NCBI GenBank assembly: GCA_016748015.1
Contig: JAAOMT010000183.1
Span: 805,574 to 869,573 of the forward strand
From: Geosiphon pyriformis uo1
Lineage: Eukaryota > Fungi > Glomeromycota
Length of the DNA: 64,000 nucleotides
Direction of reading: 5' to 3'
The notes beneath the pieces are model-generated. The model made no database searches. It saw only the letters and a program-made list of their open reading frames with translations, and had not been told where the DNA came from. The translations under genes were made by a program, and so were the position numbers. This document shows positions 10,001 through 55,972 of the stretch, piece after piece. Each line of letters opens with the position of its first letter. The first letter of the stretch is position 1.

Positions 10001-12944
10001 TATTGCTGATCTCCAATTCTGTTGCATATAAGTAATTCTTGGCTTTTGGTTGCTAGTTAACATTTGAACTAAGTTTTGGAACAGTATTTAAATTAGTTGT
10101 AATTGATAGATAATTTATGGCTGTAGTTAATAAATAACTAATACTAGAGTTTAATATATTGGAGGTAAGTATATGAGTTGTTACATTATTGAAATGTAAT
10201 AAGATTGATATTGTTCCTGATTTTGGGTTTGATTTGGAGTTTAAAACTGGTGATTGGAGTTTTAATATTGATTTTTTGATCATTGATTATTTAATTTTAA
10301 ATGACAATTGAATTTTAAGTGTCTTTGTTTATTACAATAGTGGCAGATACACATTTTTTACTATTATGATTGATTGGTTAATAAAAATAATAGGTGTAAT
10401 TGATTTTGAAAATGATTGGAGTTTTTTTAATTGTTATAATATTGTGGAAATTAATAGATTGTTTAATTGTTAATTAAATATCTCTAATTTTTTGATTAAT
10501 GGCTTTGCCAAATTGTTTTAATTTGGTATCCAATTTAAATAATTTGTTTATTAATAAGTTTACAGCTTAGGTGTAATTGGCTTTAAGTTCAGCTAATTTA
10601 AAATCTTGAATATGTGTAACTGTGTTTTGAAAAGTATTTGGGTATATTAGACATACTCATTGTAACAAACTACTGTATAATCCATAAATAAATTGGTTTA
10701 AAATCTGTGCTGCTGTAAAGTAGTTAGCTTAAATTGTCTAAATTTGGCATAGATTTCTATAAAAATGTTCTAAGTAAATAGTAACTGTTTTAGTATTAAC
10801 TTGTTTAATTGTGATAAAACTAGTTAACAATTGATTGATACTGTTGTAATTATTAAAATATTGTAAAAACATGGTTTTAAATGTGTTAAAAGTTTGTGGC
10901 TTGTTAATGAAATTTTAATACCACAAGTTGGTAGTATTCTATAAAAAATAAGAAATGGCTTGAAAAGCTTTGGCATTGTCTCAATTATTGGCTATAATTG
11001 TCTTAACTATGTCATTCAATTATGTTTAGGCATTGTTTTTTTTACTGGTAAATTTTTCAAGTTTGACAATAAGTGTATATGCTATTGGTGCTAGTTGTTG
11101 TTGTTGCAATTGTTGTTAAGATTGTTGTTGAAGCTGTTGTTATAATAAAGCAATTAGTACAATTGGTGAATTAATCATAATTACTAGAGATAAATTTTGC
11201 TAAATAATAGAAATGGAATTTAAATTGTTCTGATTTTGTAAAGTTTGAACAATCAGAGTTTGTATTTCTGGATTATTTGAAATTGGATTTTAATTATTAT
11301 TTCTCTGATTGCTGTTGTCTTTTTTTTCTAATTCAGTATCTTTTTAATAACTAGTAGATTTAAAATTTGGTTGAAGTAACAGTTATCAAAGTTTAATGAC
11401 ATTGTTGGTCGCAATTTAAATTCTTTAAAGTAATTGTCATATGTTCCTAATAGTTTGGTTTTCTCTTAATAATTTTGGAATAGTACTCTAAGTAATGATG
11501 TTTTTGCAATTGATAGTAATATGAATCTGAATAGTATATATATAGTACTTTCTGGTATATGATGGTATGATAAGTAAATAGATAAAATAATTTTAGATTT
11601 CTTCCAATTAGGTAGTTGTATTTTTCTTGATGTTTTTGCTGGAGTTTGTAATTATTTTTTGTCTGTAAAGATAATAGAAAATTTTTATTAAATGTAATTT
11701 TCAATTTTTTTGTTTATTTTTATAATTAATAGTATAAACAAATAGTTTGGTAAAAGTATAGTGCTTTGAAATAATTTACTATAAAAATTGTTGAAAGTGG
11801 TTTTTGAATCTTTTTGGTCTTTCAAATAGGATTTAATTTTTTTTTAACATAGTAATTGAAAGCTAATTTTGCTGGTTAATGATTATTTATCAGTCCAAAA
11901 TAGATTTGATAATATTGAAATAAATATTTCACAAATTCTAAATAATTTTCTCTTATGATTTCTTGTTTTGTCACTTTTCTGAATAGTTGATATTGGTGCT
12001 GGTTCTCTGTTGGATTATATCTCACAAGGAGCACCAAATATTACAGGTAATTATTTAGGATGTTAGAACAAATAACAAATCTGTAACTTGGTGCTCAATA
12101 GTTGAAAATATTGGTAATTTTGAAGGTTTTGGAGTTTGAAGGTTTTGGTTAAGTTTTTTGTATAATAGACAAAGATTTAATTAATGGTTGCTTCCATGAA
12201 TTTTTTTTTTCAATGTAATAGCCAGTTTATTTTAGCAATTGTGCCTTTCTGATAAGTTATCCTTAAATTTTTACTCTTATTTTCAGGTTTTTTATCAGAC
12301 TATTTTTGATGTTAACTATTTAATACTTAATTCTTTTAATCAATTAGCAAATAACAAAGAATGAAACAAAAAAAAAAAAATAAAATAAAAAATAAAATAA
12401 GAAATTAATATTCTGTTAATAGTTATAATCAAGAGTTATTGGTTCAGTATAATTAATTATTGAATTCTATTAATATGGAGTGTTGATAGTAGGTAAGTGA
12501 TTAATATTCTTAATCAAGTAATAATAATATGAATTAGATAATAATTGAATATTTTTATTAATATAAATGTTGTTACCGGAGGTTTTTGATCTCTTTTCTT
12601 GAATGTTGTTGATGTCTGTTTGCTGTGAATTCACGTTTTCTGGATGTAGTTGAACCTCCAGTAACTGAATTTATCTTCAAATTATCTCCTATAATTTGAA
12701 CTGCTGGGCTTATAAGTGGAATGGCCAATTCCTTACCAGTTACTTTATGTAGTTATGTTGTAGTAAACGTCAACTCTTTTCCAGGAATTGCTCGTCTAGA
12801 AGCTCACTAAAATGTATAGTTACTTTGCTGTGAAAGTCAACTCTTCTACAGGAATCTCGTCTGTAGGCTACCTTAATGATTGTAATAAGAAAAGAAAAGG
12901 AAAATAAAAGAAATGTAAAAGAAATAGAATTTTTGTCAAGAGAA

Positions 12945-12964
12945 NNNNNNNNNNNNNNNNNNNN
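12945..12964. other. Assembly gap inside the B 3' LTR
   Basis: 20 N. Comparison with the 5' LTR (21426-21842) implies roughly 417 bp are missing. Confidence 0.95.
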
Positions 12965-13121: not shown

Positions 13122-13841
13122 CTAAATGATATCTCTAATTTTGTCTGGTAACATAACCTCTTCCTCAAGACTGAGCTCCATCGAAGTCCAAGTACTGTCT
13201 GTTATTTCCAAATAATAATCCAAAATTATTGAAGAAATTTGGTCTGAAAATTGTTGAAATTTCAGTTCTGTGAGCTTTCCAATGTATTGAATCTTCAAAG
13301 GTTGAAAAATTGGGTTTTGTAGTACATTTTCACAGGTGTAGAATAGGTCATAAAGTCTAAGAGCAGCTCTAAGCCTATAGCGACTGTTTGTTGATCCAGC
13401 TGTTGTCTTGAATTTGTTGTGGGGTTGTTTCTGAATAGCTTCTTTTGTGAGATTTGCTGTTGTAAGTTCCAGTTTCCGTTCATAGAGTGTTTTTCCAATG
13501 TGAAAATATCTATAGATTGGAGAATATTTAGTGTTTTCCTCATTAAGACACAGTTGAAGTTTTTGTTGACTTGTAGCATTTGGTGGGATACTAATCAGAG
13601 TGAGCATTAGGTTTTCTCTTAAAGCAAGCTTTAAAAGTTCTGGCAGGTGAATTTCAGTATAACTTCTTGTGTTCTTTTTATACAGATGATATTTTCGTGA
13701 ATTTGGAGCTAAATTTGTAACTACTTCTGTTTGGGTATAATTTATGTGGTTTCCAGTAATAGTAATGGATAATTTGGGTATTGTTTTTAAAGCTAACATT
13801 AGTTTTTGGGATAATTGTTGAATGTTTTGAGGAATAGTCAT
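13122..13841 (-). CDS. Element B ORF3, unknown function (~239 aa), runs through the PPT into the 3' LTR
   Basis: Uninterrupted ORF from ATG 13841 (MTIPQNIQQLSQ...). Homologous decayed ORFs occupy the same position in A, C and D. Confidence 0.85.
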   Translation of the reverse strand: MTIPQNIQQLSQKLMLALKTIPKLSITITGNHINYTQTEVVTNLAPNSRKYHLYKKNTRSYTEIHLPELLKLALRENLMLTLISIPPNATSQQKLQLCLNEENTKYSPIYRYFHIGKTLYERKLELTTANLTKEAIQKQPHNKFKTTAGSTNSRYRLRAALRLYDLFYTCENVLQNPIFQPLKIQYIGKLTELKFQQFSDQISSIILDYYLEITDSTWTSMELSLEEEVMLPDKIRDII

Positions 13842-13956
13842 TATAAGCACTTGAAAAAAATAAAAATTTATTTTTGGTTTATGGGTTTTTATGTTATTTT
13901 TGTTTTGTTTTTGTGAGATTGTTCTAAATTATAAGAGAATAACTAGTAAAATTAAA

Positions 13957-15391: not shown

Positions 15392-18300
15392 CTAATCTTG
15401 CCTCATCCTTGAGAGACAATCAACGTTGGTGTGGAGTTTTCCTAGTTTGTGGTGTACGATGTATTGGTAATTAGCTAAAAATCCTGTCCATTGGGTTTGT
15501 TTTGCGTTCAGCTGGGTGTTTTTGTTTTGAAGCCATTTAAGTTCAATATTATCAGTGATAATATCGAATTTTTTGGGTCTGAGGTAAAGGTTGAAGTGAT
15601 GTAGGGCCCAGATTACTGCTGCAGTTTCTAATTCTGTTGTGGGGTAGTTCTTTTTGGCTGGCTTTAATGTTCTACTAGCATAAGCAATTACTCACTCATT
15701 TCCATTGTCATCTAACTGTGATAGGATGGCACCAAAGGCAGTATAAGAGGCGTCAATTGCTAACTGGAATTGGTTGCTGAAATCTGGGTAGGTGAGGATT
15801 GGAGCTGTTGTGAGTTTTTCCTTAAGTATCTCGAAGACATTTTGGTGTTCTTCTGTCTATTTGTATTCAACATTTTTAGTAGTGAGCTGGTTGAGAGGTT
15901 TTGCAATTTCTGAGAATCCTTTGATGAATTTTTGGTAATAAAATACTAATCCAATAAATCCTCTTAATTCTGTGGTATTTTGTGGAGTCTTGAAGTTCTT
16001 GACAGTACTGATTTTTTCGGGGTCTGGTTTAATTTTATCTTTGCTAACAATGTGACCAAGAAAAGCTAAACTTGTTTTTCCAAAGTAGCATTTTTTAATG
16101 TTCAGTTTCAATCCTGCTTTCCATAATCGTTGAAAAACTTCTCACAGGTGGATTAAATGTAGCTTGAAAGATGGTGAATAAACATCAGTGTCATCGAGAT
16201 AAACTACTACTGATTTCCAAAGGAGGCCTTTATAAACAACATCCATGAGTCTTTGGAATGTTGCTGGTGCATTGCATAATCCAAAAGGCATTATATTGAA
16301 CTCGTAATTTCCTCCTTGAGTGGTGAATGCTGTTTTGGGGCAGTCTTTGGGATCCATAGCAACTTGCCAGTATTCACTCTCTAAATCTAATGTTGAAAAG
16401 TATTTGGACTTTCCAAGGACATCCAACATTTCATCAATTTGGAGAAAAGAGTAGGCATCCCCAATGGTGACACTGTTGAGTTGTCGGTAATCAACACAAA
16501 ATCATATCTTTCCATTTTTTTTTTTAACTAGGACCACAGGTGAGGCCCATAGGTTCATTGATGGTTGAATAAGCCTATTGTTAAGCATTCATTGTACTTC
16601 TTCTCGGATAAATTGGTGACTTTCTGGGGCAACTCGGTAGGCTTGTTGTCGCCTTGGTTTGGCATCTCCTGTATAGATTTGGTGTTGAACCAAATCAGTT
16701 CTTCCTAAGTCATTGTTGTTTTCGGCAAAGATGTCAGCAAATTCTGCAATTAGCTCTTTGAGCTGGGTCTGTTGTTGTGGTTCAAGTTGTCCCATGTTGA
16801 TTCAAGATAGTTTTTCCATGACAACATAGTAGTTTTTGGAGCTGGGGTTTGAGTTGGTTTTTGGTATTGAATGTCCAATAATTTCAGTGAAATCGGGAAC
16901 TATTTGGGGTAATTCTTGTTGAAATATATTACTGTGAATAACTCCAATTTCTAAATTATTTAATAAAATTATAAGGTAATTATTGGGGTTGTAAAAAGTA
17001 ACTCAGACTTTCTTTGTTCCTTCTGAAATATAAATGTTTGGGATCAAAATATTATGTTCCAAGCAGACTTGTTCATTGGACTCAAAAATTTGTTGTGTGG
17101 TTGTTGACTTTGGGCAGGTGTAGATTTCCGGATGTTCTTCAAAGGGTGAGATAGTAATTGGTTGTGAAAGTTTGAGAATCTGATGGGATTTGTTCTGTAT
17201 GTTAAGAGCTATATTAACTGGAACTATGAATTGTCCAGTTGAACCAAAACCTTGGGTTTTTTTATCACTTTTTCCTAATTGTTTTCTTTGATTGACTAGT
17301 TGCAAACCCGAAATGTTGATTAAGAGTAGGTAAATAGCTTGGGCAATTTTTTCAGCATGTTTGATCTTGAATGGTTTGTCAGTTTCATTTTGAAGCATCA
17401 CTGTTATGTCTCCAGTATATCCAGCATCGATTATTCCTCCTCTGACATTGATTTTTTTGCTTGCCAGAGAGGACTGGGAGGCGATTTGAACCATTGCTCC
17501 TGGCGAGATTTCGAGTACAATTTTGAAGTTGATTTTTGTGAGAGATTTGGGTTTGAGAACAAGAGTATCCTTGCCTGGATATCTTAGGTCATATCCAGCA
17601 TCAATTTCGTGTGCTTTTTCAGGTTTTATTCCTTGTCCGTTGTTGTTGAAGTATTTAAGTTGTAAGGCAGGCTGATTTTTGATAAGGTAGATGGGTGTTG
17701 TTTCAATTTCTTCTGTTTCTTCAGGTTCTCCGAATTCAATTTCATTCTCATCATTTTCGCTGGGCAAGGGGATACTAAAAGCATAGCATTCAAAACACCA
17801 TTGTTCATCACAAGGCATAATGCATTCTTTACATAGCCTAATGTTCATTTGCTCTAATCGTTGAATTTGAGCTTCTTGGGTCGAGTAGGTGTAACTTGCA
17901 ATTTGGTAGTAGACTTTTATTTCATCTTCGTAATTGAATTCAGCTAATTCCATAGTGTATTCAATGTATTCTGCTTCCTTTATTTGATGAACATCTCCTT
18001 TGGTAGCTCCATTAATTAATGCCATTGCTAAGTCAAAAATCATCTCGGCATCATGAGAGTAGTGATAAAGTTTGTTAAAAGCACTATTGTATGCTGCATT
18101 AAAGGGTGTTCCTTTTTTTACTTTTTCTGAAATTAATAAAGCATATTGGCAGGTCTGATTGCAGACACCTCCTCTCATTGCTATATTAATCCAATTGCAT
18201 TTTTCTGGTAGCATCTCTCCATAAGTCAAACAAGGGGTGTTGTCCCATTTTCCACTTCTTTTTATTAGATGGCCTCATCGCTCTCTGGCAAGCCTTGCAG

Positions 18301-21005
18301 TAATAACAAGTATGATTCTCATATTCTTCTTCAGGCAAAATGCAGGCTCCCATTGATGATAGTTTTTTGTAACAGTCCTTACATTTAAGGGGGATATAGG
18401 GGCGTTGTTTCCTTGGTTCGGGTTTTGAGTAAAGTATATTCCATCTAGAGGTTTCGGGTTTAGTGTGTGGGGTGAAATGTTCTTGTTCTGTTTTATCAGC
18501 CCAGTTGGACGTTGATCCAAGAGCTATGAATGTTTCAATTATTGGTTTTTCTTCTTCCGGTTCAAATTCAAAAGCTGGGGCTTTTTCAGAGTGTTTGTTG
18601 AATGTACCACAAATGGCAGATACTTGGGTGTGTTGTTCTTGGTAGGAGATTGTTAACTCTTGTGTTTCCCAATTCAGATTAGCATTGGCTTCTTGAAGCC
18701 AATCATTTCTGACGAGAGCTTGATACTGGGGTGCATCCATTACAAGAACTTTAACTGGAATGGTGATTCCATTAAGAGTGAATGGAAAATTGTCAATTTT
18801 TCTTACTGGGGTCTTTTTCATGTCATCGGCAGTGACGATTACTGTTTAAGCTGGTCAGTTGACATTTCTTTTCAACTGTTGCATTAACTGGTAAGTAATA
18901 ATGCTTCCAGTGGATCCACTGTCTAGGATCAAGTGAATTGGCTTTCCTTTTACTTCAGCTTCTGTGTACATTACAGTGATGGCTTTTTGCTCATTAGCCG
19001 CTGCATTGCTAAGCAAAAATGGTGATTCATTTGCTTCAAATTCAAAAGGAAAAATATCAGAGAGATTGGCGTTTTCAGCAATTTGGACTGGTAGAATAGT
19101 GGTGTGGTTATGAGAAGGGTTTTGTTGTTGTTGTGCTGCAGCTCTACCTTCTGAGAGTGTAGTATGGTGAAAATCCTGTTCTTCCACCATTGTTAAATAA
19201 CTGGGTTGAGTGTGGTAATGGTTGGGTCTTGTTTGAGTGGTATTTTGGGAAACTAATTGGTTGTTCGAACTGATTCTACTGTTGTTTACTTGGTATTGGT
19301 TTTGTGGTATAAATTGATTTTGTGTAATCAGTCTTTGAGCAGGTACTTGATAATGTTGGGTGGGTGGTTATTGGTATTGCTGTTGGATTGGTTGTGGGGC
19401 AGGCTGATAATAGTTATTTTGGTATTGGGGTCTTGGTAGATAGTAAGCTGGTGGTGATGGTTGATAATAAGATTGCTGTAGTGGAGAGTAATGTTGATTA
19501 TCCCTATTTTGTTGGTCTCGTTGCAGCTTTCTGCAATCTCTTTTTCAGTGGCCAGAGATTCCACAGTAATGGCAATTCTGAGGCTGGTTGTTGGAAAGTG
19601 GTGCAAAGTTATTTTGATTTCGTCTTTGGGGTGGTTGATATCTTTGGGATTGTTGTTGTTGTTGGTTGGTAAAATAGTTTTCGACCTTCTTTGTGAGTTG
19701 GTCAATTTTTTCCTCAGCTGCTGAGCTGGTTTCTCCAATTGCCAAATTTACAAGTTTTGTACGATTGGCTTCTTCCATGGCCATTTCGTATCTTTTCGCA
19801 TGCTGTATGACAGAGTTTAAATCTTCTGGTGTGTGTGGGCGAATCTTTTTAATTAGTTTATTTTTTAGACCAACGATAAATTGATCCAAGATTTGAGCAT
19901 CAGAATAATAATTGTTTGTCTCAAGTTGGCAAATCCGTTTGAAAAGTTTGTTGAATTTTCCAATATAAGTCATAACGGATTCGGAGGGTTCTTGTTTGAT
20001 ATTTCGAAAATGATTGCGAAGAGTGATAGAGGTATTATTGTTGGTGAACTGTTCAAGGAAGGCTGCTTTGAAAGCATTCCAATCATTGAATGGGGCGGCA
20101 AGGTTTTCAAACCATTCTCCTGCTGTTCCTTTGAGAAAGTAGGGAATTGTTCTTAACATTCTGGCAGCGTTCCATCCATTTGCATCTCCAGCTTTAGTAA
20201 CTTGATCAAGTTATTCTTGGGGACTGGTCTCAATATCTTCTTCATTGAATTCAGGGATTTTTGTGATGTATGTTGTCATTTCATTTTCTTCGTTTTTACT
20301 GTCTATTGATTCTTCTTCGGTTATTTCAGAGTTGTTTTCTTCATTTGCTGCTGTCTCAGAGTGTTCACTTTGATTTTCAGCTAGAAAATCAAGGAGATTG
20401 AAACTAGTTTGAAGGGGTTCTTGTTGTTTGGTGGAACTTCTAAGTGATGTAAAATCTTCTGGTCTTGCAAATCGATTCAAGAATGAATTAGGTGTTTGTG
20501 CTTATGCAAGCGAAGCTGGAAAAAGTGTGATAGTAAGTGGAAGTTTTGAACTGGTTCTTTGTTCAGGTGTTTGTAAATGTCTGGCAGTTGTTTTCGGTAG
20601 TGTTGGAGTATTTGGGGTGGTTTTTGAATATTGCTTTAATTTGTTTTTGTTGTTTGTTTCTGTTTCCGATTCAAAATCAATAGTGTATTGAGACTGCACT
20701 GGATATGTTTCTTTACAGTATTTGATAATGTTAAAATTAAGTTTGTGAAAGTAAGTGGCAAGTGTTTCACTATTAAGGTCTTCAGTTCCCAACTGTGAAT
20801 AGTGTACTAAATTATTGTAAAGATTGCTTCTAACTTCTGAAATATTGTAATTTCCAAAAAGATAATTGTTGATGCGGTTTTCAATGTATTGGTATACTGA
20901 TTTCTTGACAATTTCAATTCCGTCTGGAATGTTGAATCTTTGCTTGCAGTGGGTGTAAATTGATTGGTAATACTCTAGAGTTGTTGCGTCTGGTGTGGTC
21001 ACCAC
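15392..21005 (-). pseudogene. Element B Gag-PR-Cys-rich-dUTPase-RT-RNaseH polyprotein (nonsense-disrupted)
   Basis: Capsid (19545-20159), CHYCGISGH knuckle, LILDSGS protease, dUTPase motifs, RT YLDD (16142-16429), RNase H ending NVDCLSRMRQD* at 15392-15394. Same frame from 21005 to ~18230, then one frameshift. Confidence 0.95.
17230..17640 (-). CDS. dUTPase domain within element B pol
   Basis: All five dUTPase motifs: AGYDL, (R)SSLA, GIIDAGYTG, EKIAQ, GFGSTG. Confidence 0.95.
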
Positions 21006-22259
21006 TTTGAATTTGTTTTTGCTATGTTATTTCCATGGGAGAGCACCAAATGTTACCGGAGGTTTTTGGTCTCTTTTCTGTAATGTTGTTGATACTTATT
21101 TGCTGTGAATTTACGTTTTCCGGATGTGGTTGAACCTCCAGTAACTGAATTTATTTTCAAATTATCTCCTATAATTTGAACTTGCTGGACTTATGAGTGG
21201 AATGGCCAATTCCATGCCAGTTACTTTATGTAGTTATATTGTAGTAAACGTCAACTCTTTCCCAGGAATTGCTTGTCTGGAAGCTTACTAAAATATATAG
21301 TTACTTTGCTGTGAAAGTCAACTCTTCTACAGGAATCTCGTCTGTAGGCTACCTTAATGATTGTAATAAGAAAAGAAAAGGAAAATAAAAGAAATGTAAA
21401 AGAAATAGAATTTTTGTCAAGAGAAACATTTTCTATCCAGGCCTGGAGTTACTAACAGTTTACTGAAATTGGTAGCTAATCAATTTCAAAACGTTAGTTG
21501 GGTTTTGGGAATTTTCCAAGTGCAATAATTAAAGAATTTGGTTTTTCAAATTATTTGATATTTATTTTTTTTTGTGTGTATAGGAATGGTTCTAAGTGAT
21601 AAATCTAAAGTAAGATACATTTTCTCGAAGAGAGAAGCTCTTCTTTTATACAACTTGTCGTAACACTATTCTATGAACTTGAACTTTGCTATTTTCTACA
21701 ATTTCGCTGAACTAAAGATACATTTCGGCAAACTACAAGTTATTTCTGCAAACTATTAGATATTTTGGTGAACTATCAATTATTTCAGCGAATTTCTATA
21801 AATTTTGGCGAACTTTTGAATGTTATATAGTTCGGGATATTGCATGATTAATCATCGCAATTAGGTTACATTTGTGTTGTGTACAATTTGGGTTATTAAT
21901 TAAATGATAATTTCAGACATTCTTTGCTAATGTAATAAGTGATAATTTGAAATGATAATATATGCTAATTAATGATAGGAATTATGAGATAGTTTTATGC
22001 TAAATGATATCTCTAATTTCGTCTGGTAACAATGTGTTTCCACTTTAAGTTATAGAAAACTATCTTTTAAAAGGAGAGTATTGGGGTTCTGAACTCTATT
22101 AAATTCTAAATCAATTCTGTCTTTTTTGTTTCTAATACTTTCACTATATATACATAATTCTTGTTATACAAGATCTTGTATTTTCTTGAGCAATATGTCT
22201 TATTTTTTCTGATAATGTGCTTATTACTAAGCAATATGCTATAATTTTTGACAATATGC

Positions 22260-25200
22260 TGTTACAAATGATTATTTGGAGTCTCAAATCAAATAACAAA
22301 CTTGTAATTTGGTGCTCAATAGCGATATTAATGGTGGTGGTAATCTGAAAGTTTTGGTTGAGTTTTTTGTATAAGAAACAAAGATTCAATAATTGTTTTC
22401 AGTAGTCTCTTGGAATCGCAATTCTATCAATTTTTTTCTCGGCTTGGTGGCCAGCAATCCTCTAATAAGTAATTCATAATTCTTTATGTGTTTTACTTAC
22501 TCACAGAGATCTTTTACCAGGCAATCCTTAACATCAATAATTCAGTGCTTAATCTTTAATTAAGTTAGTAACAACAAAAGAAATAACAAAATAGAAAATA
22601 AAAGAAACAAAAAAAATAAAGAATAAGCCAAGACAATTTTTCTTACAAGTTAGTATTCCATCAATAGCTGTGATCAAGAGCTATTGTTTTAGTGTGGTTA
22701 AGTATGAATTACTATCAACATGAAGTGTTGATAGTGGAAAATGAATCAAGATAGTGAATAATTATTTATTGATATTTGTAATATAGAAGATTGCTTAGAT
22801 TAAATCTAAACTGAGAGGTCTGTTTTTTCTATTTCTAACACTACCACTATATATACATAATTGAAATTCCTCAATTCCTCAATTTTTCACACCAGGAATC
22901 CTGGAATTTCTGGAATCCTGCAATTTCTTTTGAGAAGAATTCTGTGATTCCTTGTATGAGAATCCTGAAATTCTTAGAATTCTGCAATTCCTCTTGAAAG
23001 AAATCTGGAATTCCATATTTATTATGGCTACTTCTGATTGGCTAATTATATATGCTAATATATTTCCTATATTTTATGAGTAATATTATTCTTTCTTTTT
23101 TTAATATTGAGCTCTATCGAGATCTCCCAAATCTCCTAACTCTAATTCTCCATCCTTGAGTATTTCTTGAACTTTTTTTTCAAGAATTACTTGAGTTATC
23201 TTGTTTTGTAACTCTTTAAATTGGGTGTTAGTTATTTTTTCCATTTGGTTAACTGTAATAGAGTTTATTTCTGAATTAAGTAAGATTTCTGGTCTGTCTT
23301 GAAATTCAGTATATAGCTAATAGATGGCTCTTGCTTGTGTAGTTAAATTGTTCTTTTCCACAAATTGTTCCAGTTGTTGTAGTATTGTTGTGTCAAATAA
23401 TCATTTTTTTTTATCTGTGTATAAGTTTTGAATGTTCAAGTGTCATCCCAAGTGAAAATAACAAAAGTTCTTTGAAAATTTGTGTATTCACTATTTCCAA
23501 GTTTTTTTGGTCAACTCTTAATATGTGCTGATATTTGTTGGTTTTTCCATTGCTAATTTTATTTTCAGAACCATTTTGTCAATAGTGTTTTCTGTTTTTT
23601 TTTGACTTTTGTATTTGGGTATTTTTCTGGTATTTCAGTATCAAATGGTTTGTTGATTGATAGTAATTTCTATATTCTGTTGTTGAATTAGTTGAAAGAA
23701 TTGTTGTGTTAGTGAGTGGATATTGTCAGTAATTTCCATTTTTCTAAAGTCTTTTGTCACATCTATTATGTTTTTGTATACATTTTTTATTGTTCAACTT
23801 TATGTATTTGGTCCAATGATTATAATTGGTTCCAGATCTCGTAGAATCTCATCTGGTTGGACTAGTATTCTCTGTACTCTTAATTGTGGAATATTACTGG
23901 TAGATGGTGACACTATATGATGATATGGTTTTAGTCGATTACTATGTGCTGCTTTGGCTAAGCTTTTATTGTTCCATCTTAATTTATAAGCTCTATTTCC
24001 AAGAATTTCTTCTATGTGAAATGGTTTGTCTTATTTGAAGTCAAATTTTTTATTTCATTGTTTTTTTGCTTTGGTACAATATAAAAGTACTTTGTCTTCA
24101 ATCCTGAATTCAACTGGTTTATCTAATAGTTGGTTATCATGTCTTTTTTTTTGTTTTTTTTGTAACTTTTGGATGTTATCAGCTGCTCTTTGCCATTTGT
24201 TTTCTAGTGTCTTCATTAAGTTATACGTTTTTTTCAACAATGTCTTTTGAAAATTCTCTTTGGTTATTGGTTCAGTTGGATATGTCTTGACTTCTATTTC
24301 AACTGGTAATGTTACTGTTCTACTATATACTAATTCAAATGGTGTTGCTTGTATAGTGTCTTGTTTCATTGTCTGATAAGCAAATAATACTGATGGTATG
24401 AACAAATCTCATTCATCCTGGTTTTTTTGGCTAATCTTAGCTATTGTTTCACACAGTGTTTTATTGAACCTTTCAACTAACTTATTGGTTTGTAAATGAT
24501 ATGGTGATGATAATGGTCTTTTAATTCCAAATCTTTGGCTTAATTCTGCTAATGTTCTATTTACAAAGTAAGTTCCTTGATCTAATAGTAGTTCTTTTGG
24601 ATATTCATGTTGACATATTAAATCTTAATGAACAAATTTGGCAACAGATTCTGCATCTGCTTTTTAAATGGCTTTTCCTTCTGGCCATTTAGTAAGATAG
24701 TTCATGGCTACTGCAATATATCTGTTGTCTCTACTGGTAATTGTTAATGGTCTGACTAGATCAATTCCAATTTGATCAAATAGTTGTCCCACTTTGATTG
24801 GTCTTAATGGTTTATTTGATTTTGCTCCTTCTCTTCTCTGACAAGCATTACAATTTTGAATATATTGAATAATGTCTGGATACATTGATGGCCAATAATA
24901 TCTTTTTCTGGTTCTTTCTATGGTTGTTTTTTTGTGAAAATGTTCTGCTGTTGGATCTAAATGCATGTTGAATAGTATTGTCTCTTTTTCTGGTTCTGTG
25001 ATTACTCTTGTTGGCTGGTCTGGATTTCTTCTGTTTTTTTGGTACAGTATATTTTGATGATTAATAAAATATTTTGATTGCTGTTTTATGTTGTTTTGTT
25101 TTTTTCAAGATAATTTCTTCTTGAACAATTGAGTATTTATATAATGTTAGAGTTGTTGGTATTTTTGGATATTTATTTTTTGTTATATTTTTGAGTTGAA

Positions 25201-28200
25201 ATGTTTTTAGATTTGTCTCATTTGTGACAACCTGTCAGCATTTCTGTTTTTTTTTCTCTTTTTATAATGTACTGTATATTTGTATAGTGCAAGTTTTATT
25301 TTCCATTGAGCATGATAATCATCTCCAAATTTCTGCTTCTGGATTGAAGTTAATCTTTTATGGTCTGTGTAAATGTCAAATTTCTGGCTCAAGTATTCTT
25401 TCCATTTTATTACTGCCCAGTAAATAGCTAAGTGTTCTAGTGCTGGTGTTCTATAGTTCTTTTCCACTGGGCTCAAACTTTGGCTAATGTATGCTACTGA
25501 ATGTTTTCTTTCATCTGGTCCCCTCTGTAATAGTACTGCTCCTAATGCTTGACCTGATGCATTAGTTGTAATTATAAATGGCTTGCTATGGTCTGGATAG
25601 ATTAGTACTGGAACTTGGATGAGCTTTCTTCTTAATGTATTAAAAGCTTCTTGCTGAGTTTTTGTCCATTCATATTTGGTGTTCTTTGTTTAAAGCTGGT
25701 GCAGTAGTTGAGCTATTTTGGAAAAGTCTTTGATAAAGTGGCAGTAGTATTTGGCAAATCTCAAAAATGCTCTTAGTTTAGTTAAGTTGTTTAGTACTGG
25801 AAAGTTTTTGACTACTTTAATCTTGTCTGGGTCCGTTTTGATACCATCTTTGCTCACAACATGTCCTAAAAACTTGAGTTCCATTTTTCCAAGGAAACAT
25901 TTAGTTGCATTTAGTTTTAATCCAGCTCTTTTTAGTCTTTTAAACACTTGTTGAAGATGATACAGATGATCATTGAATGTTTTTGAAAACACATTGGTAT
26001 TGTCCAAGTATATGACTATTGACTTCCACAATAGTCTGGTGTAAACAATTTCTATTAGCCATTGGAATGTGGCTGGTGTATTCATTAATTCAAATAGCAT
26101 GACTTCAAACTTAAAGTTTTCTTCTCTTGTGGTAAATGCTGTTTTTTCTTTGTTGGCTGGATCCATGGCTACTTGCCAGTAACCATTATCTAGATCCAGT
26201 GTTGAGAACTATTTATTTCCACCGAAAGCATCAAATAATTTCTGGATCTGTGAAATTGGATAACTGTCTCCACAAGTAATACCATTGAGTTTTTTATAAT
26301 CCACACAAAAGCGGATCTTCCCATTTTTCTTCCAGACTAGTACCACTGGTGATGACCATGGACTCATTGATAGTTGAATTAACCCATTGTTAAGCATTTG
26401 GTTGATTTTTTGACAAATGATCTCATGGCTGGCAGATGGTACTCTGTATGCTCTTTGTTTGATTGGTATTGCATTTCCAGTTTTGATCTGATGCTGGATT
26501 ATGTTGGTGCAGCCAAATTTATTTTCATTAGCAAAGATGTCATTGAAATTCCTGAGTAACATTTTTAATTGCATCTGTTGAAGTGGGTCTAGATTCCTCA
26601 TATTCATCTGTTTTAATTGTTCCAGTTGGAGTAGATAATATTTATTTTGTCTGTAAATGATTTGTGATGTGATGTCTACATATCCACAAAGCTGTGGAAA
26701 ATTTGGAATGTAGTTTGGTGGTTGATCCTCAACTTCAGTGGTTAAATATCCAATGATAGTTCCTTTTGGTATCTTGATGACACTTCCAATTGTGTTGTAG
26801 ATGAGAATTTTGATGTTTTTAAGGCTTTTGGCTGGTATGTAAAAATTAGTGAGTTCAAGTTCTCCTGATTCACAAATGATGGCTTCTGCTTTGAACAACT
26901 GAGCTTGATCTTTTACTTTCTTTTTTATAGCTAATATATACTGGTCATATGGTGGAATGGAAATTGATTGATAGATTGAGATAATTTTTCCTTTGTCAAT
27001 AATTTTTTCCTCTGTCATATTAATTGGTACATCTATTCTACCCATTGAACTAAATCTCTGTATCCTTCTAGCTGTAATCCCTAATTCTTTTTTGTTTCCT
27101 ACTAACACTAGCTGAGCTATTTTAACCAAAGGCAGAAATATTGTCTGTGCTATTTTTTTATTTGGCTCTATTGTATAGGCTTTTTCTGAATCATTTTGTA
27201 ACATTTTAATAATATTTCCTATGTATTCTGTGTTAATTATTTCTCTTCTGATATTTATTCTTCTTTTTGCTAGGCTATTCTTAGATGTTAGTTGAACCAT
27301 GGTGGTTGCTGAAATTTCCAGTGCTATTTTAAGATCAATGTATGTGCATAAATATGATTCCAATTTTATGACTTCTTTTTCTGGATATCTTAAATCAAAC
27401 CCTGCATTAGTATTATGCACGCATTCTGGCATAATACCTTTATCATTATTGCTAAACCATCTTAGTTCTTGCTCTTTGTTGAGGTCAAGGAGTGCAATAT
27501 ATTGTTCAAAGTTTGAATCTGAGTTTGAATCTGAGTTGAAACCATTGTTGTTGTGGTCATATTAGACTGAGCTGAAACTGTTGTTTTCATCATTGTCATT
27601 GTCAGAGTTTGAATTGGAATTGAAAGTTGATTCCAATTTTAATGCACAGTAGCTGATTGGTTTTTCTTCTTCTAGAATTGTATATATCATACATGGTGGC
27701 AGATTGTAAATAAGATCACACTTATTACAATATTGAAAGTTACATGGAATTAGACAGTGTTGACACAGTCAGGTGTTTAACTGCTTTAAGCATTGCTCTT
27801 GTTTTTCTCTTGTGGGTGCTAATTCTTGGTAGTGTTCATAAAATTGCTCTGGATTTAGGAGATTTATGACTGGTTCTGGGTCCTAGTCAAGTTCTATAGG
27901 TTCTGATAGGTTATTTTTGATTTTTCTAATTTCTTCAGGTAACACTTCTTCTATTTTGGCTATTGTCATTCTTCATATCTCATCATTGTCATATAGACAA
28001 CTGTCCAATTGCTGAATGGTTCTTCTTCAAGTGACTTCTATTGGTGTTCCTTTCCTAATCCAGTCATTGATAAAAATTATATACTGGCATGAAATGTCAC
28101 ACATTCCTTCTTAACTAGGGATGTTATTCCATATTTCTTTGCCAAGTAATGTTTCTTTACAAGCTAGGCAAGATTTGTTGTCCCATTTTTTTTGCCATTT

Positions 28201-31200
28201 TGGTCATCTAAAGCATTCTATGATGCATATACAACAGTAGAATTTGGTTACTATTGAGTATTCCTCATTATTACCACAACATGCATCCATTGATGACAAT
28301 TTTTTGTTACAATTAACACATTTTAGCTTTAGTTGATGATAGTAGAACTGTGGTGGTATGGTATAGGTGTATGGTCTATTAGTGATATTGATTGAGACTG
28401 TTTCTTCTTCTTTTGTCTTTTCTTTTTTTTTGTTATTCTCTTTCTATTCTCAAGTTTGTGGTAACTTTTGGTAGTCATTGTTAGCCCATGAGATTTAGTC
28501 AGTACTCTAGATAAGTTCTTTCTTTTGTTTTTCTTTCCCATTATCATCCAATAATAGTATCAGTGACAGCTTTTTGTGGTTTTCCTTAGCTTACAAAACT
28601 TGATATGTTTCTCAAGTTGGTTTTGGCTTTTTTTTCTTAACATTAATTAAAGATGCTGGTATGACATTGCTGAGTTTGAAGTGACTACAGATTGCTGGTA
28701 CTTATGTGTATTGGCCATTCTAATTTATTTGCAACTCTTGGGTGGTTCAGTCAAGTGTCACATTGGTTTTAAATAGCCAATCATTACCAACTAGAGCTTG
28801 GTATTGAGTGGCTTTTATTACCAGAACTTTAATTGGTATTATAATGGTGTTGATTTCTATAAAAAGGTTATCTATTTTACTAATTGGAGTTTTGGTGGCT
28901 TTATCAGCTGTAATTATCTTTGCACTGGCAGCTCAGTCAACTTGGTAACTTAATTGGTCTATAAGCTGTCTTGTAATAATGCTGCTAACTGATCCACTGT
29001 CTAAGATCAGTTTGATAAAATGGCCATCAATTTTAGCATTAGTATACATGGCAGTAATTGGTTTTTTTTCAAGTGCGGCTCCATTGAACAATGGTGTAGA
29101 TAACAGTTCTTCAAATTTGAATGGAAAGATAGCTGCAAGTAATTCATTATTGGTGATGATGGCTGGTGAGATATTGCTGGTAAGAGATTTCTGGTTTGTT
29201 TTTAAGTTGTTAGATAAGGCATCTTCTGAGATAACTAGGAGACTTAAATAGTTCTGGGAACTCAGATTTTGGTTATACCCAGTTCCTGAACTTTGCTGAC
29301 ATGATTCCAAAGATTGGTTGGATAAACTGAGGATCAGTTGGTAAACTACTATTGCTGATCTCCAGCTTTGTTGTGTTATTCTTGGCCTGTGGGTTCCATT
29401 TTGAAGTAAGTTTTGAGGCAGTGTTTAAATTTGTTAGGATTGATAGATTACTGATGGCTGTGATTGATATATTACTTGTGGCTGCAGCTAATAAATTGAA
29501 GCTTGATATACTGGTGGTTGATAGATTGGCTGCTGTGTCATTGGCAGGTAAGTGGATTGATATTGATTTTGATTTGGGTGATGGTTCAAAGTCTGAAATC
29601 TGCGATTAGAATTTCTGTATTGATTTTCCAATTGTGAGTTGCTATAAGAATGGCAGTTGACTTGGATATAGTCTTGTTTACCACAGTTGTGGCAGACATA
29701 TGTCTTAGGCTGTCACAGCTAATTTGATAATAATAGTGGTCACAACTAATTTTGGAAACGAGTTGTATTTCCTAAATTATTGCATCATTGTGATGGCTAA
29801 TAAATTGCACGATTGTTAGCTAAGTATCTTTCTAATTTCTGATTGATTGAATCACTGAATTGTTTCAATTTGGAATCCAATTCAGATAATCTATTCATTA
29901 CTAGATTAATGGCTTGGGCATAGTTAGCTTCAAGTTTAGCAGCTTCAAAGTCTCTGGCATTGTTGACTGTAGCTTAAAAGTCTACTGAATATAATGGATG
30001 TATGTGTTGAAGGATGCTATTGTGCAATCCTCTAATAAATTGATTCAAAATTTGTGATGCTATAAAATAATCAGCTTGAATTGTTTGAATTTGGCACAGG
30101 TTTCTGTACAAGCATCTTAGGTATGTAATAATGGCTTCAGCTTTTCCTTGTTTGATAGTGATAAAGGTATTGGCTAATTAGTTGATGCTATTGTTGTTGC
30201 TAAAGTATCTTAAAAACTCTGTTTTGAACACATTAAAGATAACAGGCTTGTTGATCAAGCTTTGATACCATGAGTCAGTAGTATCTTGGAGAAAGTATGA
30301 GATGGCTTGTATGGCTCTGTCATTATTTCATCCATTGGCTGCAATGGCTTTTTCCACATTGTTTAGCCACACTTGGGTGTCATTTTTTTCGCCAGTAAAT
30401 TTTTCAAGTTTTGCAATTGGTGTATATGCCATTAGATCTAAGTTGGGTTGTTGTGGTGCTTGAAGTGGCTGTTATAACAATTGCTGCAGTGGTATTTGTT
30501 GCTGTTGAATTGGTTCAACTGGTGGCTAATTAATGACAATTACTGGAGATAAGTTTTGCTGATTAATTAACTCAGGGTTTGGATTGTCTTGATTTGGCAG
30601 TGCTTGGATATTCGGAGTTCTGATTCTGGATTTTTCAAGTTTAGATTTTGCTGAGTTTGAAGGTTTGGGGTTTCAACTTCCAGGTTTTTGGGGATCAGGT
30701 TCTGGTAAGTAAATTCTTGATTTTTAGATTCTTCCTCCTCTTCTTTCTGTTCTCTTTCTGATTTTGTTATTTCCTAAGAACTCACAGTTCCAAAATCTGG
30801 TTGGAATAGTGAAGATTGAAATCTTAATGGCATTGGCAATTGTGACTTAAATTTTTCAAAATACATGCTGTATGGTTCTAGAAGATCTTTTTTCCTTTGT
30901 TTACTTTGAAATAGAAATCATCCAAATGTTGATGTTGTGGTTAATGTAGATGCATTTGTTGATGTGATGTTGATGGCACTTTCTAATGTATAGTGATATA
31001 ATGGATTTGTTGGTAATTCTATTCTTGTTTTCTTTCAAGTTGGTAATTGTATTCCTTTAAGTATTACTGCTGGTGTTTGTAACCTTTCTTTGTTTTTGTC
31101 TGTAGAGGTAATAGAAAATTGTTGTTGAGTGTATCTTTCAATAGTTTAGTTGATTTTCTTGATGATTGGTGCAAAGCTATGATTTCTTGATAAGCTGGTG

Positions 31201-32306
31201 TGTTGAAATAATTCTGTATAAAAGTTTTCTCTTACTGATTTGATGTTAACTGTTCTTCTTAAGCATTTTGTGGTTTTATTGTTGACATAAAAGTTGAAGA
31301 CTGATTTTATTGGGAAATGGTTATTGTTTAATTCTAATTGTTGACTGTACTGTTGAAACAAAAATTTGGCAAATCCTAAATGGTTTGCTTCTATGTTTTC
31401 TGGTTCTGCCACTTTTGGATAATTGCTGTTGGTACTAATTTTTTATAAGATTATATCTTACAGGGAGCACTAAATGTTACAAGTGATTATTTGGAGTCTT
31501 AAATCAAATAACAAATTCATAACTTGGTACTTAATAGCAATATTGATGGTGGTGGTAATCTGAAGGTTTTGGTTAAGTTTTTTGTATAAGGGACAGAGAT
31601 TCAATAGCTGTTTTTAGTAGCCTCTCGGAATCACAATTTCATCAATTCTTTTCTCAGCTTGGTGGCTGGCAATCCTCTGGTAAGTAATCTATAATTCTTT
31701 ACATGTTCTACCCACTGGCAGGGGTTTTTTACCAGGCAATTCTTGATGTCAATAATTCAGTACTTAATCTTTAATTAAGTTAGTAACAACAAAAGAAATA
31801 ACAAAATAGAAAATAAAAGAAACAAAGAAAATAAAGAATAAGTTAAGACAATTTTTTTTGCAAGTTAGTATCCCATCAATAGTCATAATCAAAAGCTATT
31901 GTTTCAGTGTGGTTAAGTATGAATTACTATCAACATAAAGTATTGATAGTGGAAATAGTGAATAATTATTTATTGATATTTGTAATATAGAAGATTGCTT
32001 AGATCAAATCTAAACTAAGAGGTCTGTTTTTTCTACTTCTAATACTATCACTATATATATATAATTGAAATTTCTCAATTCTTTGATTTTTTATACCAGG
32101 AATCCTGGAATTCTTAGAATCCTGCAATTTTTTTTGAGAAGAATTCTAGAATTCTAGAATTCTGCAATTCTTTGTATGAAAATCCTGAAATTTTTGTAAT
32201 TCTGCAATTTCTCTTGAAAAAAATCCTGAAATTCCACATTTACTACAGCTACTTCTGATTGGCTAATTATATATGCTAATATACTTTCTATATTTTATGA
32301 GTAACA
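22260..32306 (-). mobile_element. Ty3/gypsy LTR retrotransposon C
   Basis: LTRs 22260-23085 and 31475-32306. TSD ATGC at 22256-22259 and 32307-32310. PBS 31455-31472. Gag from 31412, PR (LILDSGS, ORF 28933-29310), dUTPase-RT (26209-27432), RT/RH to 25207, IN ~23787-25176, ORF3 from 23739. Confidence 0.96.
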
Positions 32307-35164: not shown

Positions 35165-36130
35165 TTATTGATCCTCATCCTCATCCTCATTCTCCTCTTT
35201 ATCTTGATCTTCACTCATGATTGGTAATGGAGGCTGTCCTGGCAACCTTTTAAACGCATATTTAATCACTGAAAAACCGCTCATGCCAATATCTTCCCAC
35301 CATCTTACCACTTGATAAAGACCATCGTATCGATATCCTGATCTAGGCGCATAGTCTGAATGTACCTGATATCCTCTCACAACCCTTATTGGTCTACCTG
35401 TATCGCAAGAGACTTTTAATCCCAGATTTAATCCAGTCAAAGTTTGATTTTTACTCTGTGGTGCAGTGCGTAGATTTTTTGGTTTTGTCTTTGTCCCTTT
35501 TAAATCGCGACCACCACAACCAGTGTAGGTAAAAGCCTCTCCCCAATCGATGTCGTCTTCATAACCTCCAGAAAGGGCAATACTCCAAGCCCCTTCTTTT
35601 TCGTTTCCGCTGATACCGGCAACAGTTGGGGCATGAATACCATCACGGCTGCAATCGATTCTCATCATCCATGTAGTTCCAATTTCTATCCCCGGTATGT
35701 GTCCAAATACCTTCGGATTTCTTTTGCCAATTCTAGTACTTTTGTAAGCCGGTTGGTGATATTCATCATCTGAAATCACATCTTTAATTGTCTTTGGAGG
35801 CTATCAAATCAAATTCATGTTGTATAATAAGTATTATTTATTCATTAAAAAGCAACAAATACTATAATTTGGTTATATACTTGCCTTTTTGGCTAGTCTA
35901 TTTGATCTTCTGTTTGCGCCTGCTTGGGCGGCTTCGGCGGATTGCTTTTGGGCTTTCCTAGATGTTGATTGGGAAATTTTAAGATATCTTTTTTTGATTG
36001 GCTGCTTCTTAGCTTGACGTTCTGGGACGGATGACTGATATGGTGCTTCTAGGCCCAGTTTCTTTAGAATTTGTTGATTAGCTTCAATATTGAGCAACCG
36101 TTGCTTCTCGTAAGCACTCAGTGATGCCAT
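35165..36130 (-). CDS. Stand-alone SRA/YDG (5-methylcytosine-binding) domain protein, 2 exons
   Basis: FGHIPGIEIG, GIHAPTVAGISG, SIALSGGYEDDID, YTGCGGRDL and YRYDGLY are UHRF1-type SRA motifs. N-terminal LSAYEKQRLLNIEAN motif. Intron 35801-35884. Confidence 0.93.
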
Positions 36131-40619: not shown

Positions 40620-41484
40620 TGTTACAGGGGATTATTTCTGCTGTTGAAGTAAATAACAACCCGTAACTTGGTGCTCAAAAGCTACTTCCGTTGATGATGT
40701 TCTGAAGGTGTTGTATCTGAAGGTTTTGATGGAGTCCTTTGTATAATGGACAAAGATTCAATAGTGGTGGTGTTCGCATGTGTAGTTGTTTCCCAATTTC
40801 TTTTTCAGCTTGGTGGCCGAATTTATTCTGGCAGTCGTGCTCTTCTGATAAGCTAACCGATAATATATATAACTCTACCCTTATTTCTGGGTCTTTTACC
40901 AGGCTATCTGTGACGTCAATAACTCAGCGCTTTTAATTTTCAATTAATTAGTATGCACAATAATCAAATCAAAATAAAATAAAGAAAAGAAATAACAGAA
41001 AAATAAAGAAAGAAAAGAAATAAGCCCAGGCAGTTTGGCAGATTAGTATTCCGTCAATAGCCGTGATCAAGAGCTATTGTTCCAGTGTGGTTAAGTATCA
41101 ATTACTATCAACATGAAGTGTTGATAGTGGAGAGTGGATTGAGATATGGAATAATTATTTATTTGATGATTTTGTTTCTTGGCTAAAAATTCTGTGGTAT
41201 CGATTCTGTCTTTTCTGTTTCTAACACTACCACTATATATACATAATTGGGGTTCCTCAATTCCTCGATTCTTCACGACAGGAATCCTGGAATTCCTGGA
41301 ATCCTGCGATTCCTTTGAAAGGAATCCTGGAATTCTGGAATCTTGCAATTCCTCATCAGGAAATTCTGAAATTCCTGGAATCTTGCAATTCCTAAAAGGA
41401 ATCCTGGAATTCCACATTTACTACACTTACTTCTGATTGGCTAATAATTATGCTAATATATTTCCTATATTTCTATGAGTAACA
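40620..41484 (-). repeat. Solo LTR E (element C family, least mutated copy)
   Basis: TGTTAC...GTAACA ends, TSD CTGC at 40616-40619 and 41485-41488, colinear with the C LTRs. Confidence 0.95.
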
Positions 41485-43250
41485 CTGCTATAAGCTTTTT
41501 AGATTCATATTTTATATTGGTTTTTATGTTAAAAAATGCTAATTTACCAAGAAAAAAGTCTGTTTTATTATCAAAACTCTATATTTTTTCTTTTATTTTT
41601 TTTAGTTTTTGTGTAAAATTATTATTAATAGAACCAAAAACAGTCTTTTTGGTTACTCTTTTTTTATTATAATTATTTTTTTTATTAGCAATTTAATAAG
41701 TGAAGCCCAACCACTATCTAATACATAAAACCAGATTAAGTGGCTTAAACTAAATGCAATTCACACTCTTACTATATGTAATTAACTATTTAGGCCAAAC
41801 AAAACAACACTATACATCTATGTTAATACACACATCACTACTTAAGCCAGAAAAAAAAGACATAATTTATGTCTATTAAAAATAACTGCAAAAGACCCAA
41901 TAATGCCAAGCAACCAAATCACTTCATTAAAAAGCATAGACACTACACTACAAAACAATCCTAATATTAAACCACTATTTACAACCAATTCAGTCTTCTT
42001 TATATCCATTCTATAACTAAATCTTATTAGCCACTCCTTAGTTTAATACAATTTTACCAAATGTTTCATATACTCAATAACAATAAAAAAAAGCTTCTTT
42101 TTTTCTATCAAAAATCTTAACAGCCTCTAAATACCAATTTTTTAACACAAATTCTTTATAAATTATTGTGTATAAACTTATATTAGAAAAACATTTAGAA
42201 AATGTTCACAAAATAGTAGAAAAAAACAAATCATAAACACCTGCCAAAGCAATCTATTGTGCAGAAGTCTTAACCAAAATTTTATTCTAAATACCAATAT
42301 TTTAAACACAGGTAAACACATAGTCAAACAACTTTACCTTATTATACAGCAAATACAGTATACCAAAATATTTTTTATTATATAATCTCTTCCTAATTAT
42401 TACCAGCAACTATTTATGTACAGTTTTTATTAAGTATGTGTATAGATTTGCAAACTTTTTATTAGTAAACCCAAAAAGCATATATGAATCAAAATGCTAA
42501 ACTTTTGCAATAGTTATCCAATCTATTTTTTTAATCAGTATACTTAAAATTACATCATGACCAAAACCAGCTTCTTAATAAATATAACAAATGAAATTAT
42601 ACAAATCTTAAACAAAATAATAGATATTATTAAACACAAATGTGCTTTCAGCTATTAAAAAACATTCTTGCATTCTTAATGGCAAAAAAAAAGAATAAGC
42701 AACTTTATCAGTTATTATATTAGCTTCAATATTACCACAAATCCTTGAATAACTTTTAACTTTCACCTAATTTATAGTAAGATTTTTATCTCTAATCAGA
42801 TTAACAATATGTTTTTTTTCTATTTAGCATGGATTATAAAAGTTAAGTACAGTAAACATTAATTTAGAAACACATATATTAATAACAGCCAAGCTGTTAA
42901 AATACAAAATAACTGTACAAAAAGACAAAACACACTCTAAAGACAAAGCAACAGTCTGTAACTTAGCCATAGTAAAAGACAAAAGCCTATGTACACTGAT
43001 ATCAATACCCATATTTACAGCTGGAAAATACACAACTGTCTTACTAACAATATTAATAAAACTAGTGTTTTTTAAAGAACCATCTGTAAAAACATCAATT
43101 AAATCAAACCAAATTTTATGCAAACTACACCATATATTAAACAACTTTTTAAATACTAAAATGTTTAAGTCTAATAACTGGTTAGCTTTGGTAATATTAA
43201 GCAACAAGAAACTCTTATTGTGCAAAAATTTTAACACAAGCTTAAACTAG

Positions 43251-44654: not shown

Positions 44655-45143
44655 CTAGTAAAAAACAGAATCCTTAGAATTTAATCTTTTTTAACAACAA
44701 AAGTCTTCTAGTCCATTACAGCACTTTTTTTATTAATAAGCCTATTATCAAAAGCAATCTTAAACTGTTTCAAAAAATAAACAAAACCAAAATACAAAGA
44801 TTTTTCCAAAATTATTAATATTAGAAACTTACCAGAACTATAAAATACATTGAACAGATTGTTTATTAAAAACAACTTATTGTCCAAGAAAATTTTCATC
44901 ATCTCAGCCAAAAAATTATTTACTAAACTAATACATAACTTGATAGAAAACTGTAAAGAATTCAAAAAAGCCCAATCCAAAACCAGTAAATTTTAAAATT
45001 TGTGATTAAATAAATGGCCAAGAATACTTAAAGCATTAGAAAAAATAACCAAAGCAGCCAATTTTTCTTCAAACTGCACTTGTTTAAACAACTTCAAACT
45101 ATATAAAGAAGAATAATATAAAGCCTTATTAGAAAAGTCATGT

Positions 45144-55962: not shown

Positions 55963-55972
55963 TTCCAGACTC

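Follow-up and report, generated by a model that had tools for sequence, protein, structure and literature searches.

A conserved GTG codon upstream of a capsid-edge AUG suggests a two-start Gag in Ty3/Gypsy retrotransposons of the fungus Geosiphon pyriformis

The stretch of DNA analyzed here, hereafter the window, comprises 64,000 nucleotides of Geosiphon pyriformis uo1 (assembly GCA_016748015.1, contig JAAOMT010000183.1, positions 805,574 to 869,573) and contains four decayed Ty3/Gypsy retrotransposons, elements A, B, C, and D, together with solo long terminal repeats (LTRs). Our subject is the 5' end of their Gag coding region, where a conserved GTG codon appears to open an extended Gag frame well ahead of a conserved AUG at the edge of the capsid domain. 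The 5' LTR of A hosts the insertions of B and C, ∼230 bp apart (nested, 12038-32480), and D lies on the opposite strand. LTR pairs and 4-bp target duplications were found for B, C, and D, with a primer-binding site (TGGTGCTC) after the 5' LTR. The 5' LTR of B (21051-22031, minus strand) has TG...CA ends and shares its 4-bp duplication with a 3' LTR ending at 12571; that of C (31475-32304, minus strand) is partnered by a 3' LTR at 22260-23083, and that of D (49079-50141, plus strand) by one at 58170-59244. These LTR ends, the duplication, the primer-binding site, a Ty3-type capsid, a CCHC knuckle, and the order of Pol domains place the elements in Ty3/Gypsy (Metaviridae). Pfam matches in the window cover capsid, protease, dUTPase, reverse transcriptase, RNase H, and integrase. 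In B, the Ty3-type capsid region (19545-20210, minus strand) matches Retrotrans_gag (E = 1.6e-14) and Ty3_capsid (E = 4.3e-9), and the CCHC knuckle is visible in the Gag translation, with a zf-CCHC match in gene model P0313.

Decay in B, C, and D has proceeded almost purely by transitions, in the direction C>T/G>A. The two LTRs of D differ by 128 transitions vs. 3 transversions and those of C by 90 vs. 2, while A is a heavily decayed copy of a C-like family. The CpG loss in these elements fits a report that transposable elements are CG-methylated in a related fungus (10.1101/2021.03.30.436303), and LTR sequences are reported to make up 41.2% of the G. pyriformis genome (PMC11952901). The family itself comprises hundreds of dispersed copies in this species. 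All named homologues of the N-terminal region are G. pyriformis gene models (the best 120 of 356 matches for B, 31 of 31 for D, and 96 of 96 for C), the closest being up to 92% identical to B among the matches listed. We kept the models in which the start region could be aligned (B, 118 of 120; D, 20 of 31; C, 76 of 96), since the others lack that region. A search of representatives with a 646-position profile gave at least 150 matches, mostly from the same family, and a metagenome scan with the capsid alignment yielded no relative among 326 pattern matches, nor did viral contigs among 7.

Downstream of the 5' LTR, all four copies carry AAA-GTG-R, the LTR end being separated from the G of GTG by 64 (A), 45 (B), 62 (C), and 61 nt (D). 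The motif reads AAA-GTG-A in A (11972-11977, minus strand, G at 11974) and AAA-GTG-G in both C (31410-31415, minus strand, G at 31412) and D (50200-50205, plus strand, G at 50203); in B, AAA-GTG (21003-21008, minus strand, G at 21005) is the putative non-AUG start of the extended Gag. No in-frame ATG lies between LTR end and GTG in any of the four, B having a single out-of-frame one at -31. The first in-frame Met of B is codon 243. These findings bear out a first-pass annotation of the window, which had described a GTG in this position in every copy, no ATG before it, and no Met in B for ∼240 codons after it. Its statement that the GTG lies in the Gag frame stands for B and D, in which the frame is unbroken into the capsid, and less directly for A and C, in which decay indels cut the link. 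The start context that it had called optimal is indeed present where the coding region begins, with A at -3 and G at +4, the two positions reported as key in filamentous fungi (PMC5487733), a rule that may not hold for the Geosiphon lineage.

The neighborhood of the codon is conserved across the sampled copies. Val-Ala, A at -3, and G at +4 are retained, and the preceding residue is Lys, Asn, or Thr, the codons of which all start with A, so that A-3 persists while -2 and -1 vary. A fourth subfamily (P0316 and P0357) also begins Lys|Val. By itself AAAGTGR is not rare, occurring two to three times per 8-kb element; what goes beyond chance is its fixation at the first residue of a domain common to three subfamilies, plus the choice of GTG, which among the 123 Val codons farther downstream is used 17 times (decay may have lowered this proportion somewhat).

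Is GTG ancestral? At position 1, the 214 kept models have Val in 181 (99 of 118 for B, 63 of 76 for C, and 19 of 20 for D), Met in 19, Ile in 1, and Leu/Glu in 6, the remaining 7 beginning at codon 2. By this count, which the first-pass annotation had proposed as a check and which was made on residues in sister gene models, ATG is not the majority codon at this site. An ancestral ATG, with GTG as an artefact of decay, might be read from the 19 Met models and from one Met-rich clade. However, Val predominates in every subfamily, and C>T/G>A decay turns GTG into ATG, not the reverse, as had been argued in the first-pass annotation; this explanation is largely refuted and can be given very little credence. 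Since other Val columns have changed to Ile/Met in 0-30% of rows, the 9% Met at position 1 represents ordinary G>A decay, and because the decay product is Met rather than Ile, the underlying codon is GTG. Among C-like rows, position 1 is Met in 3 of the 8 with a preceding Asn and in 1 of the 75 with a preceding Lys, which is what one would expect if AAC-GTG forms a CpG; ten C-like models begin at the position-1 Met and thus do not display the -1 residue. In a wide read comparison, the GTG position is absent from the 40 of 183 differences shown, and a narrow one, over 70 bases, listed a single difference that does not bear on the GTG. Judged by the sister gene models, GTG is the ancestral codon and the first of a conserved coding region.

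That region opens with a domain of ∼105 residues (20691-21005 in B, minus strand), predicted to contain four helices. The B, C, and D subfamilies are collinear over this length from the GTG onwards, without shift, at 15-23% identity (∼20%), and the majority residue is common to all three in 9 of 101 columns, Val1 and Ala2 among them. AlphaFold2, run on a mixed cross-family alignment, returned four helices with a predicted local distance difference test (pLDDT) score of 75.9, residues 1-3 being disordered (pLDDT <50). No Pfam family matched the domain, Foldseek gave no match at E ≤ 0.001, and the ESM Atlas gave no usable one; the best hit of a fold search (Z = 6.5) was among unrelated helical proteins. 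For a small helical bundle, such blanks do not establish a new fold. Myristoylated retroviral matrix (MA) carries Gly at residue 2, which is Ala here. The domain is followed in B by a Met-free linker rich in Ser, Thr, Gln, and Glu (20280-20690, minus strand), in frame with Gag and interrupted by one decay stop at codon 168. No signal anchor or transmembrane segment was found in any of six extensions, the top 19-residue hydropathy being 0.41-0.86.

Upstream of the GTG, the picture is different. The leader of B, which contains the primer-binding site (TGGTGCTC...) and lies between LTR and GTG (21006-21050, minus strand), is probably noncoding. Relative to the GTG, the leaders of C-like rows (n = 101) fall 69/8/4 into the three frames (13 are too short and 7 unclassed), and those of B-like rows (n = 126) 33/10/7 (76 are spliced by the predictor or other). 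Since the leader occupies all three frames, each in several copies, coding constraint appears to end at the GTG. The leader-frame label clusters on a tree of the domain, built after setting aside the 25 of 100 rows in which the domain is broken, yet it changes ∼6 times. These data bear on the proposal that the GTG is a plain Val codon or part of a nucleic-acid signal (packaging or primer handling), the domain being translated from another upstream near-cognate codon or persisting as a remnant, with the capsid AUG alone in use. Chance occurrences of AAAGTGR are compatible with it, many B models are open in frame for some codons upstream of the GTG, and translation of the domain is itself an inference from sequence. 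Nevertheless, the variable leader frame speaks against it, as does the fact that the -2 and -1 bases change while A-3, GTG, and G+4 stay. Moreover, the domain keeps its collinear helical pattern and folds from a cross-family alignment, and the B extension has 1 stop in the GTG frame vs. 8 and 25 in the other two. We regard this proposal as improbable.

A second alternative, already raised in the first-pass annotation, is that splicing supplies the start. An intron could end at the AG of AAAG|TG, so that an upstream exon ending in A creates an AUG, or an exon with an AUG from the LTR could be joined at a CAG in the leader. In every leader there are indeed YAG sites 4-57 nt ahead of the GTG, where gene predictors often place a splice, the LTRs carry a long pyrimidine tract and ATGs in U5, and CAG|TG is conceivable in rows with Thr|Val. 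However, AAG, which the first version would need, is a rare splice acceptor, eight C-like rows with Asn before the codon have no AG at the junction, the phase from CAG sites to GTG takes all three values, and the predicted introns vary between models. The missing junction AG and the varying leader phase weaken this alternative, which we judge unlikely.

The second landmark of these elements is a Met located 240-330 codons after the GTG and directly before the capsid domain, a conserved feature that had escaped the first-pass annotation. In B, it is Met243 (20277-20279, minus strand), the probable main start of Gag and Gag-Pol, within a Met-Ala/Thr-Thr-Tyr motif; D (Met269, 51007-51009, plus strand) and C (30430-30432, minus strand) have Met-Ala-Tyr, the link to the GTG frame being broken by a decay indel in C, and the corresponding codon of A reads ATA (11083-11085, minus strand). 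Among gene models matching the motif, the Met is retained in 51 of 57 of the B type and 46 of 51 of the C/D type. Downstream, the decayed Gag-Pol of D (50203-57335, plus strand) runs in one frame from the GTG through capsid, protease, dUTPase, reverse transcriptase, and RNase H, with integrase shifted to the next frame in this copy. C likewise has a single frame from capsid to RNase H, and the frame shifts of B are private. Because capsid, nucleocapsid, and Pol share one frame downstream of the capsid AUG, Gag-Pol would not depend on the GUG, which therefore probably does not throttle it, contrary to what the first-pass annotation had suggested. The stronger part of that suggestion was a side remark that ribosomes might reach downstream starts, and a conserved AUG before the capsid, behind an AUG-poor stretch, agrees with it.

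Between LTR end and capsid Met, B, C, and D together contain 14 ATGs vs. 52.6 expected from the downstream density, a 3.7-fold depletion (P = 3e-10). ATG is the most significantly depleted of the 64 triplets in this interval, and antisense CAT is not depleted. In-frame Met occurs twice in 790 codons vs. 12 expected (P = 5e-4), and out-of-frame ATG 11 times vs. 18.1 under codon-order shuffles (P = 0.024), whereas control open reading frames (ORFs) are enriched (126 vs. 103). The three ATGs that B has in this interval read ACG in 57%, 59%, and 81% of the summed contig depth in run X1 (45-64 contigs per site, depth not being equivalent to copy count). Where Met appears in the extensions, it falls at Thr, Val, or Ala columns, except at one poorly aligned C column. 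The ATGs between LTR and capsid AUG that could be checked thus look like products of CpG decay.

We consider it likely that the GUG acts as a start codon, and probable, with somewhat less assurance, that the elements use two starts, the GUG yielding a minor extended Gag and the capsid AUG the main Gag and Gag-Pol. A rival scheme, that of the first-pass annotation, in which the GUG is the sole start, would have all Gag and Gag-Pol made from it at low efficiency, the capsid Met itself being an ordinary amino acid, a site of processing, or the beginning of an internal transcript. The continuous frame of D from GTG to RNase H is compatible with this scheme, and two further observations that favor it weigh against the two-start reading. 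First, shuffling synonymous codons reveals no extra ATG depletion (2 vs. 2.9 in B, 4 vs. 3.1 in C, and 5 vs. 4.0 in D), which leaves missing Met and residue pairs as the basis of the depletion; second, in the C family the capsid AUG is preceded by C at -3. However, a sole GUG leaves unexplained why families with 30-35% identity at the capsid edge retain Met in that place, and why both Met and out-of-frame ATG, common downstream, are missing upstream. Capsid is also needed in many copies, which fits poorly with a weak start. We therefore think a sole GUG start about as unlikely as the splicing alternative.

Several other points tell against two starts. Taken per element, the codon-order shuffle is significant in B alone (P = 0.03, vs. 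0.39 in C and 0.25 in D), CpG decay blurs the remainder of the depletion signal, and some downstream windows of the same length are equally ATG-poor (minimum 2 in B and 4 in D). Single-base slips in dead copies could add to the variation in leader phase. The R-U5 part of the LTRs carries 2-13 ATGs per copy, some of which may be genuine: although the C-family sites are mostly ACG/ACA in other copies, one is ATG in four of six, five D sites are ATG in both LTRs, and a U5 ATG 165 nt before the LTR end is the start of 26 B gene models. One C-family clade has Met at position 1 in three of six rows, making an ATG sub-lineage possible. No stable or conserved hairpin was found 3' of the GTG when 80-100 nt around it were folded (z from -0.2 to -1.8). 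Finally, the data derive from automated gene models for decayed copies in one species, such models prefer Met starts and add artificial introns, and the B-family counts represent selected rows, the best 120 of 356 matches.

On balance, what is observed (the GTG in its context, a conserved domain after it and a leader of varying frame before it, the depletion of ATG, the retained capsid Met, and one frame for Gag-Pol) is most simply read as the following mechanism, of which GUG initiation, leaky scanning, and the ratio of long to short form are inferred parts. A weak start at the GUG would produce a long Gag composed of helical domain, linker, capsid, and nucleocapsid. Most scanning ribosomes would pass the GUG, cross 0.7-1 kb of AUG-poor sequence, and initiate at the capsid AUG, giving the main Gag and Gag-Pol, with both starts on one RNA. 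As to the role of the long Gag, a minor particle component or a regulator is our guess. Overall, the two-start arrangement appears well supported by comparison, as seen so far in decayed copies of one species.

A number of other features of the window deserve mention. A long U-rich tract is found 300-430 nt before the LTR end in all three LTR families (e.g., 21330-21420 and 49720-49770), preceded in the C and D LTRs by a common short motif; it may serve as a 3'-end signal or belong to an intron in the leader. From the U5 ATG of B (21051-21215, minus strand) runs an upstream ORF of ∼55 codons, the end of which in sister copies appears to coincide with the LTR end, 45 nt before the GTG; the 3' LTR of B, which contains a 20-N assembly gap (12945-12964), has AAG at this ATG site. 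Solo LTRs of the C-like family lie at 40620-41489 and 45140-46053, neither followed by a primer site, and the one at 40620 is the least decayed, with CpG sites retained. Within Pol, dUTPase follows the protease and a Cys-rich stretch and precedes reverse transcriptase (17003-18274 and 26209-27561, both minus strand), and in C a weak second aspartic-protease-like match comes after it (Spuma_A9PTase, E = 0.0012, below cut-off). Between integrase and 3' LTR, B has an extra ORF (13122-13928, minus strand) of 268 codons from stop to stop, without a Pfam match; a pyrimidine run and an AG lie ahead of it. At the corresponding position, D (about 57400-58170, plus strand) has a broken ORF that is similar by eye, without a tblastn match. 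A subgenomic accessory gene is a possible interpretation of this ORF. An island between the repeats (35165-35800, minus strand) holds an exon for a host-type SAD/SRA (methyl-DNA binding) domain (E = 9e-50).

Extended forms of Gag with a non-AUG start are known from gammaretroviruses and from the domesticated gene PEG10. If the two-start reading is true, the same logic arose again in retrotransposons of an early-diverging fungus of the mycorrhizal lineage and was kept across subfamilies that are ∼20% identical, which would point to an unknown accessory domain. In its fullest form, the proposal is that a two-start Gag resembling glyco-Gag evolved independently in a fungal Ty3/Gypsy lineage. An accessory form initiated at the GUG and carrying a previously undescribed four-helix domain would be held at a few percent by leaky scanning across as much as 1 kb of coding sequence purged of AUG, at a ratio responsive to host start-codon stringency, which would link particle make-up or copy-number control to the state of the cell; this we put forward tentatively, as somewhat less probable than not. 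A practical corollary is that ATG-only annotation misreads these elements, 181 of the 214 models reaching the domain solely via invented upstream exons or read-through.

Distant elements with the same primer site differ in their start. Searching for the primer-site pattern yielded 72 loci; the N-terminal domain was present in none of them and a weak capsid-profile match in three (L019, L035, and L072). Over the bases shown, L035 and L072 are identical and thus form, with L019, two distinct distant elements, in both of which an ordinary in-frame ATG, 18-22 nt past the LTR, is the start. The same primer-site start, with an ATG within about 20-70 nt, is seen at the LTR-like junctions L002, L004, L008, L019, L021, L026, L035, L039, L069, and L072. 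In the literature searched, judged from listings and with most subscription papers and supplementary repeat annotations outside its scope, no account of non-AUG initiation of Gag in a mobile LTR retrotransposon came to light, and a search combining glyco-gag with leaky scanning was without result.

The closest parallels lie in other systems. The gPr80 glyco-Gag of murine leukemia virus (MLV) is reported to start at an in-frame non-AUG codon upstream of the Gag AUG, as a minor extended form with 6.7% ribosome density in the extension (PMC5778647), and in gammaretroviruses GUG is used in some strains and the extension is generally without AUG (PMC5778647; PMC3042739). In sequence arrangement, the Geosiphon element likewise has an in-frame non-AUG codon before the Gag AUG and an AUG-poor extension. 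However, it is a fungal Ty3/Gypsy element rather than a retrovirus, and its extension, of 240-330 residues vs. 88 in MLV, directly abuts the capsid domain and has no hydrophobic signal anchor, for which reason the extended Gag is not a glyco-Gag. Two plant-virus and host-gene cases resemble it in part. Rice tungro bacilliform virus is described as having a weak non-AUG first start and a long AUG-free coding stretch through which ribosomes reach the main polyprotein start (PMC5902531); it shares the AUG-free scanning lane, but its upstream ORFs encode separate proteins after a ribosome shunt, whereas the Geosiphon upstream region is fused in frame. In cpc-1 of filamentous fungi, conserved near-cognate starts in an A-3/G+4 context are reported to extend the frame N-terminally (PMC5487733), although this is a host transcription factor with upstream-ORF control and several near-cognate codons, as opposed to a single GUG in a transposon. 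Translation of the Gag-like ORF of PEG10 begins at a CUG as well as at an in-frame AUG farther downstream (PMC2800197), a pairing of non-AUG and AUG starts like the one proposed for Geosiphon. PEG10 differs in being a domesticated gene of the host, with 34 residues in the extension and a -1 frameshift, while the Geosiphon element was mobile, has a GUG and an extension with its own predicted folded domain, and encodes Gag-Pol in one frame. We rejected a PEG10-type gene here, as there is no -1 frameshift (capsid to RNase H being one frame in C and D) and there are hundreds of dispersed copies. By analogy, the two-start Gag of Geosiphon would work like MLV glyco-Gag or PEG10, yet it is neither.

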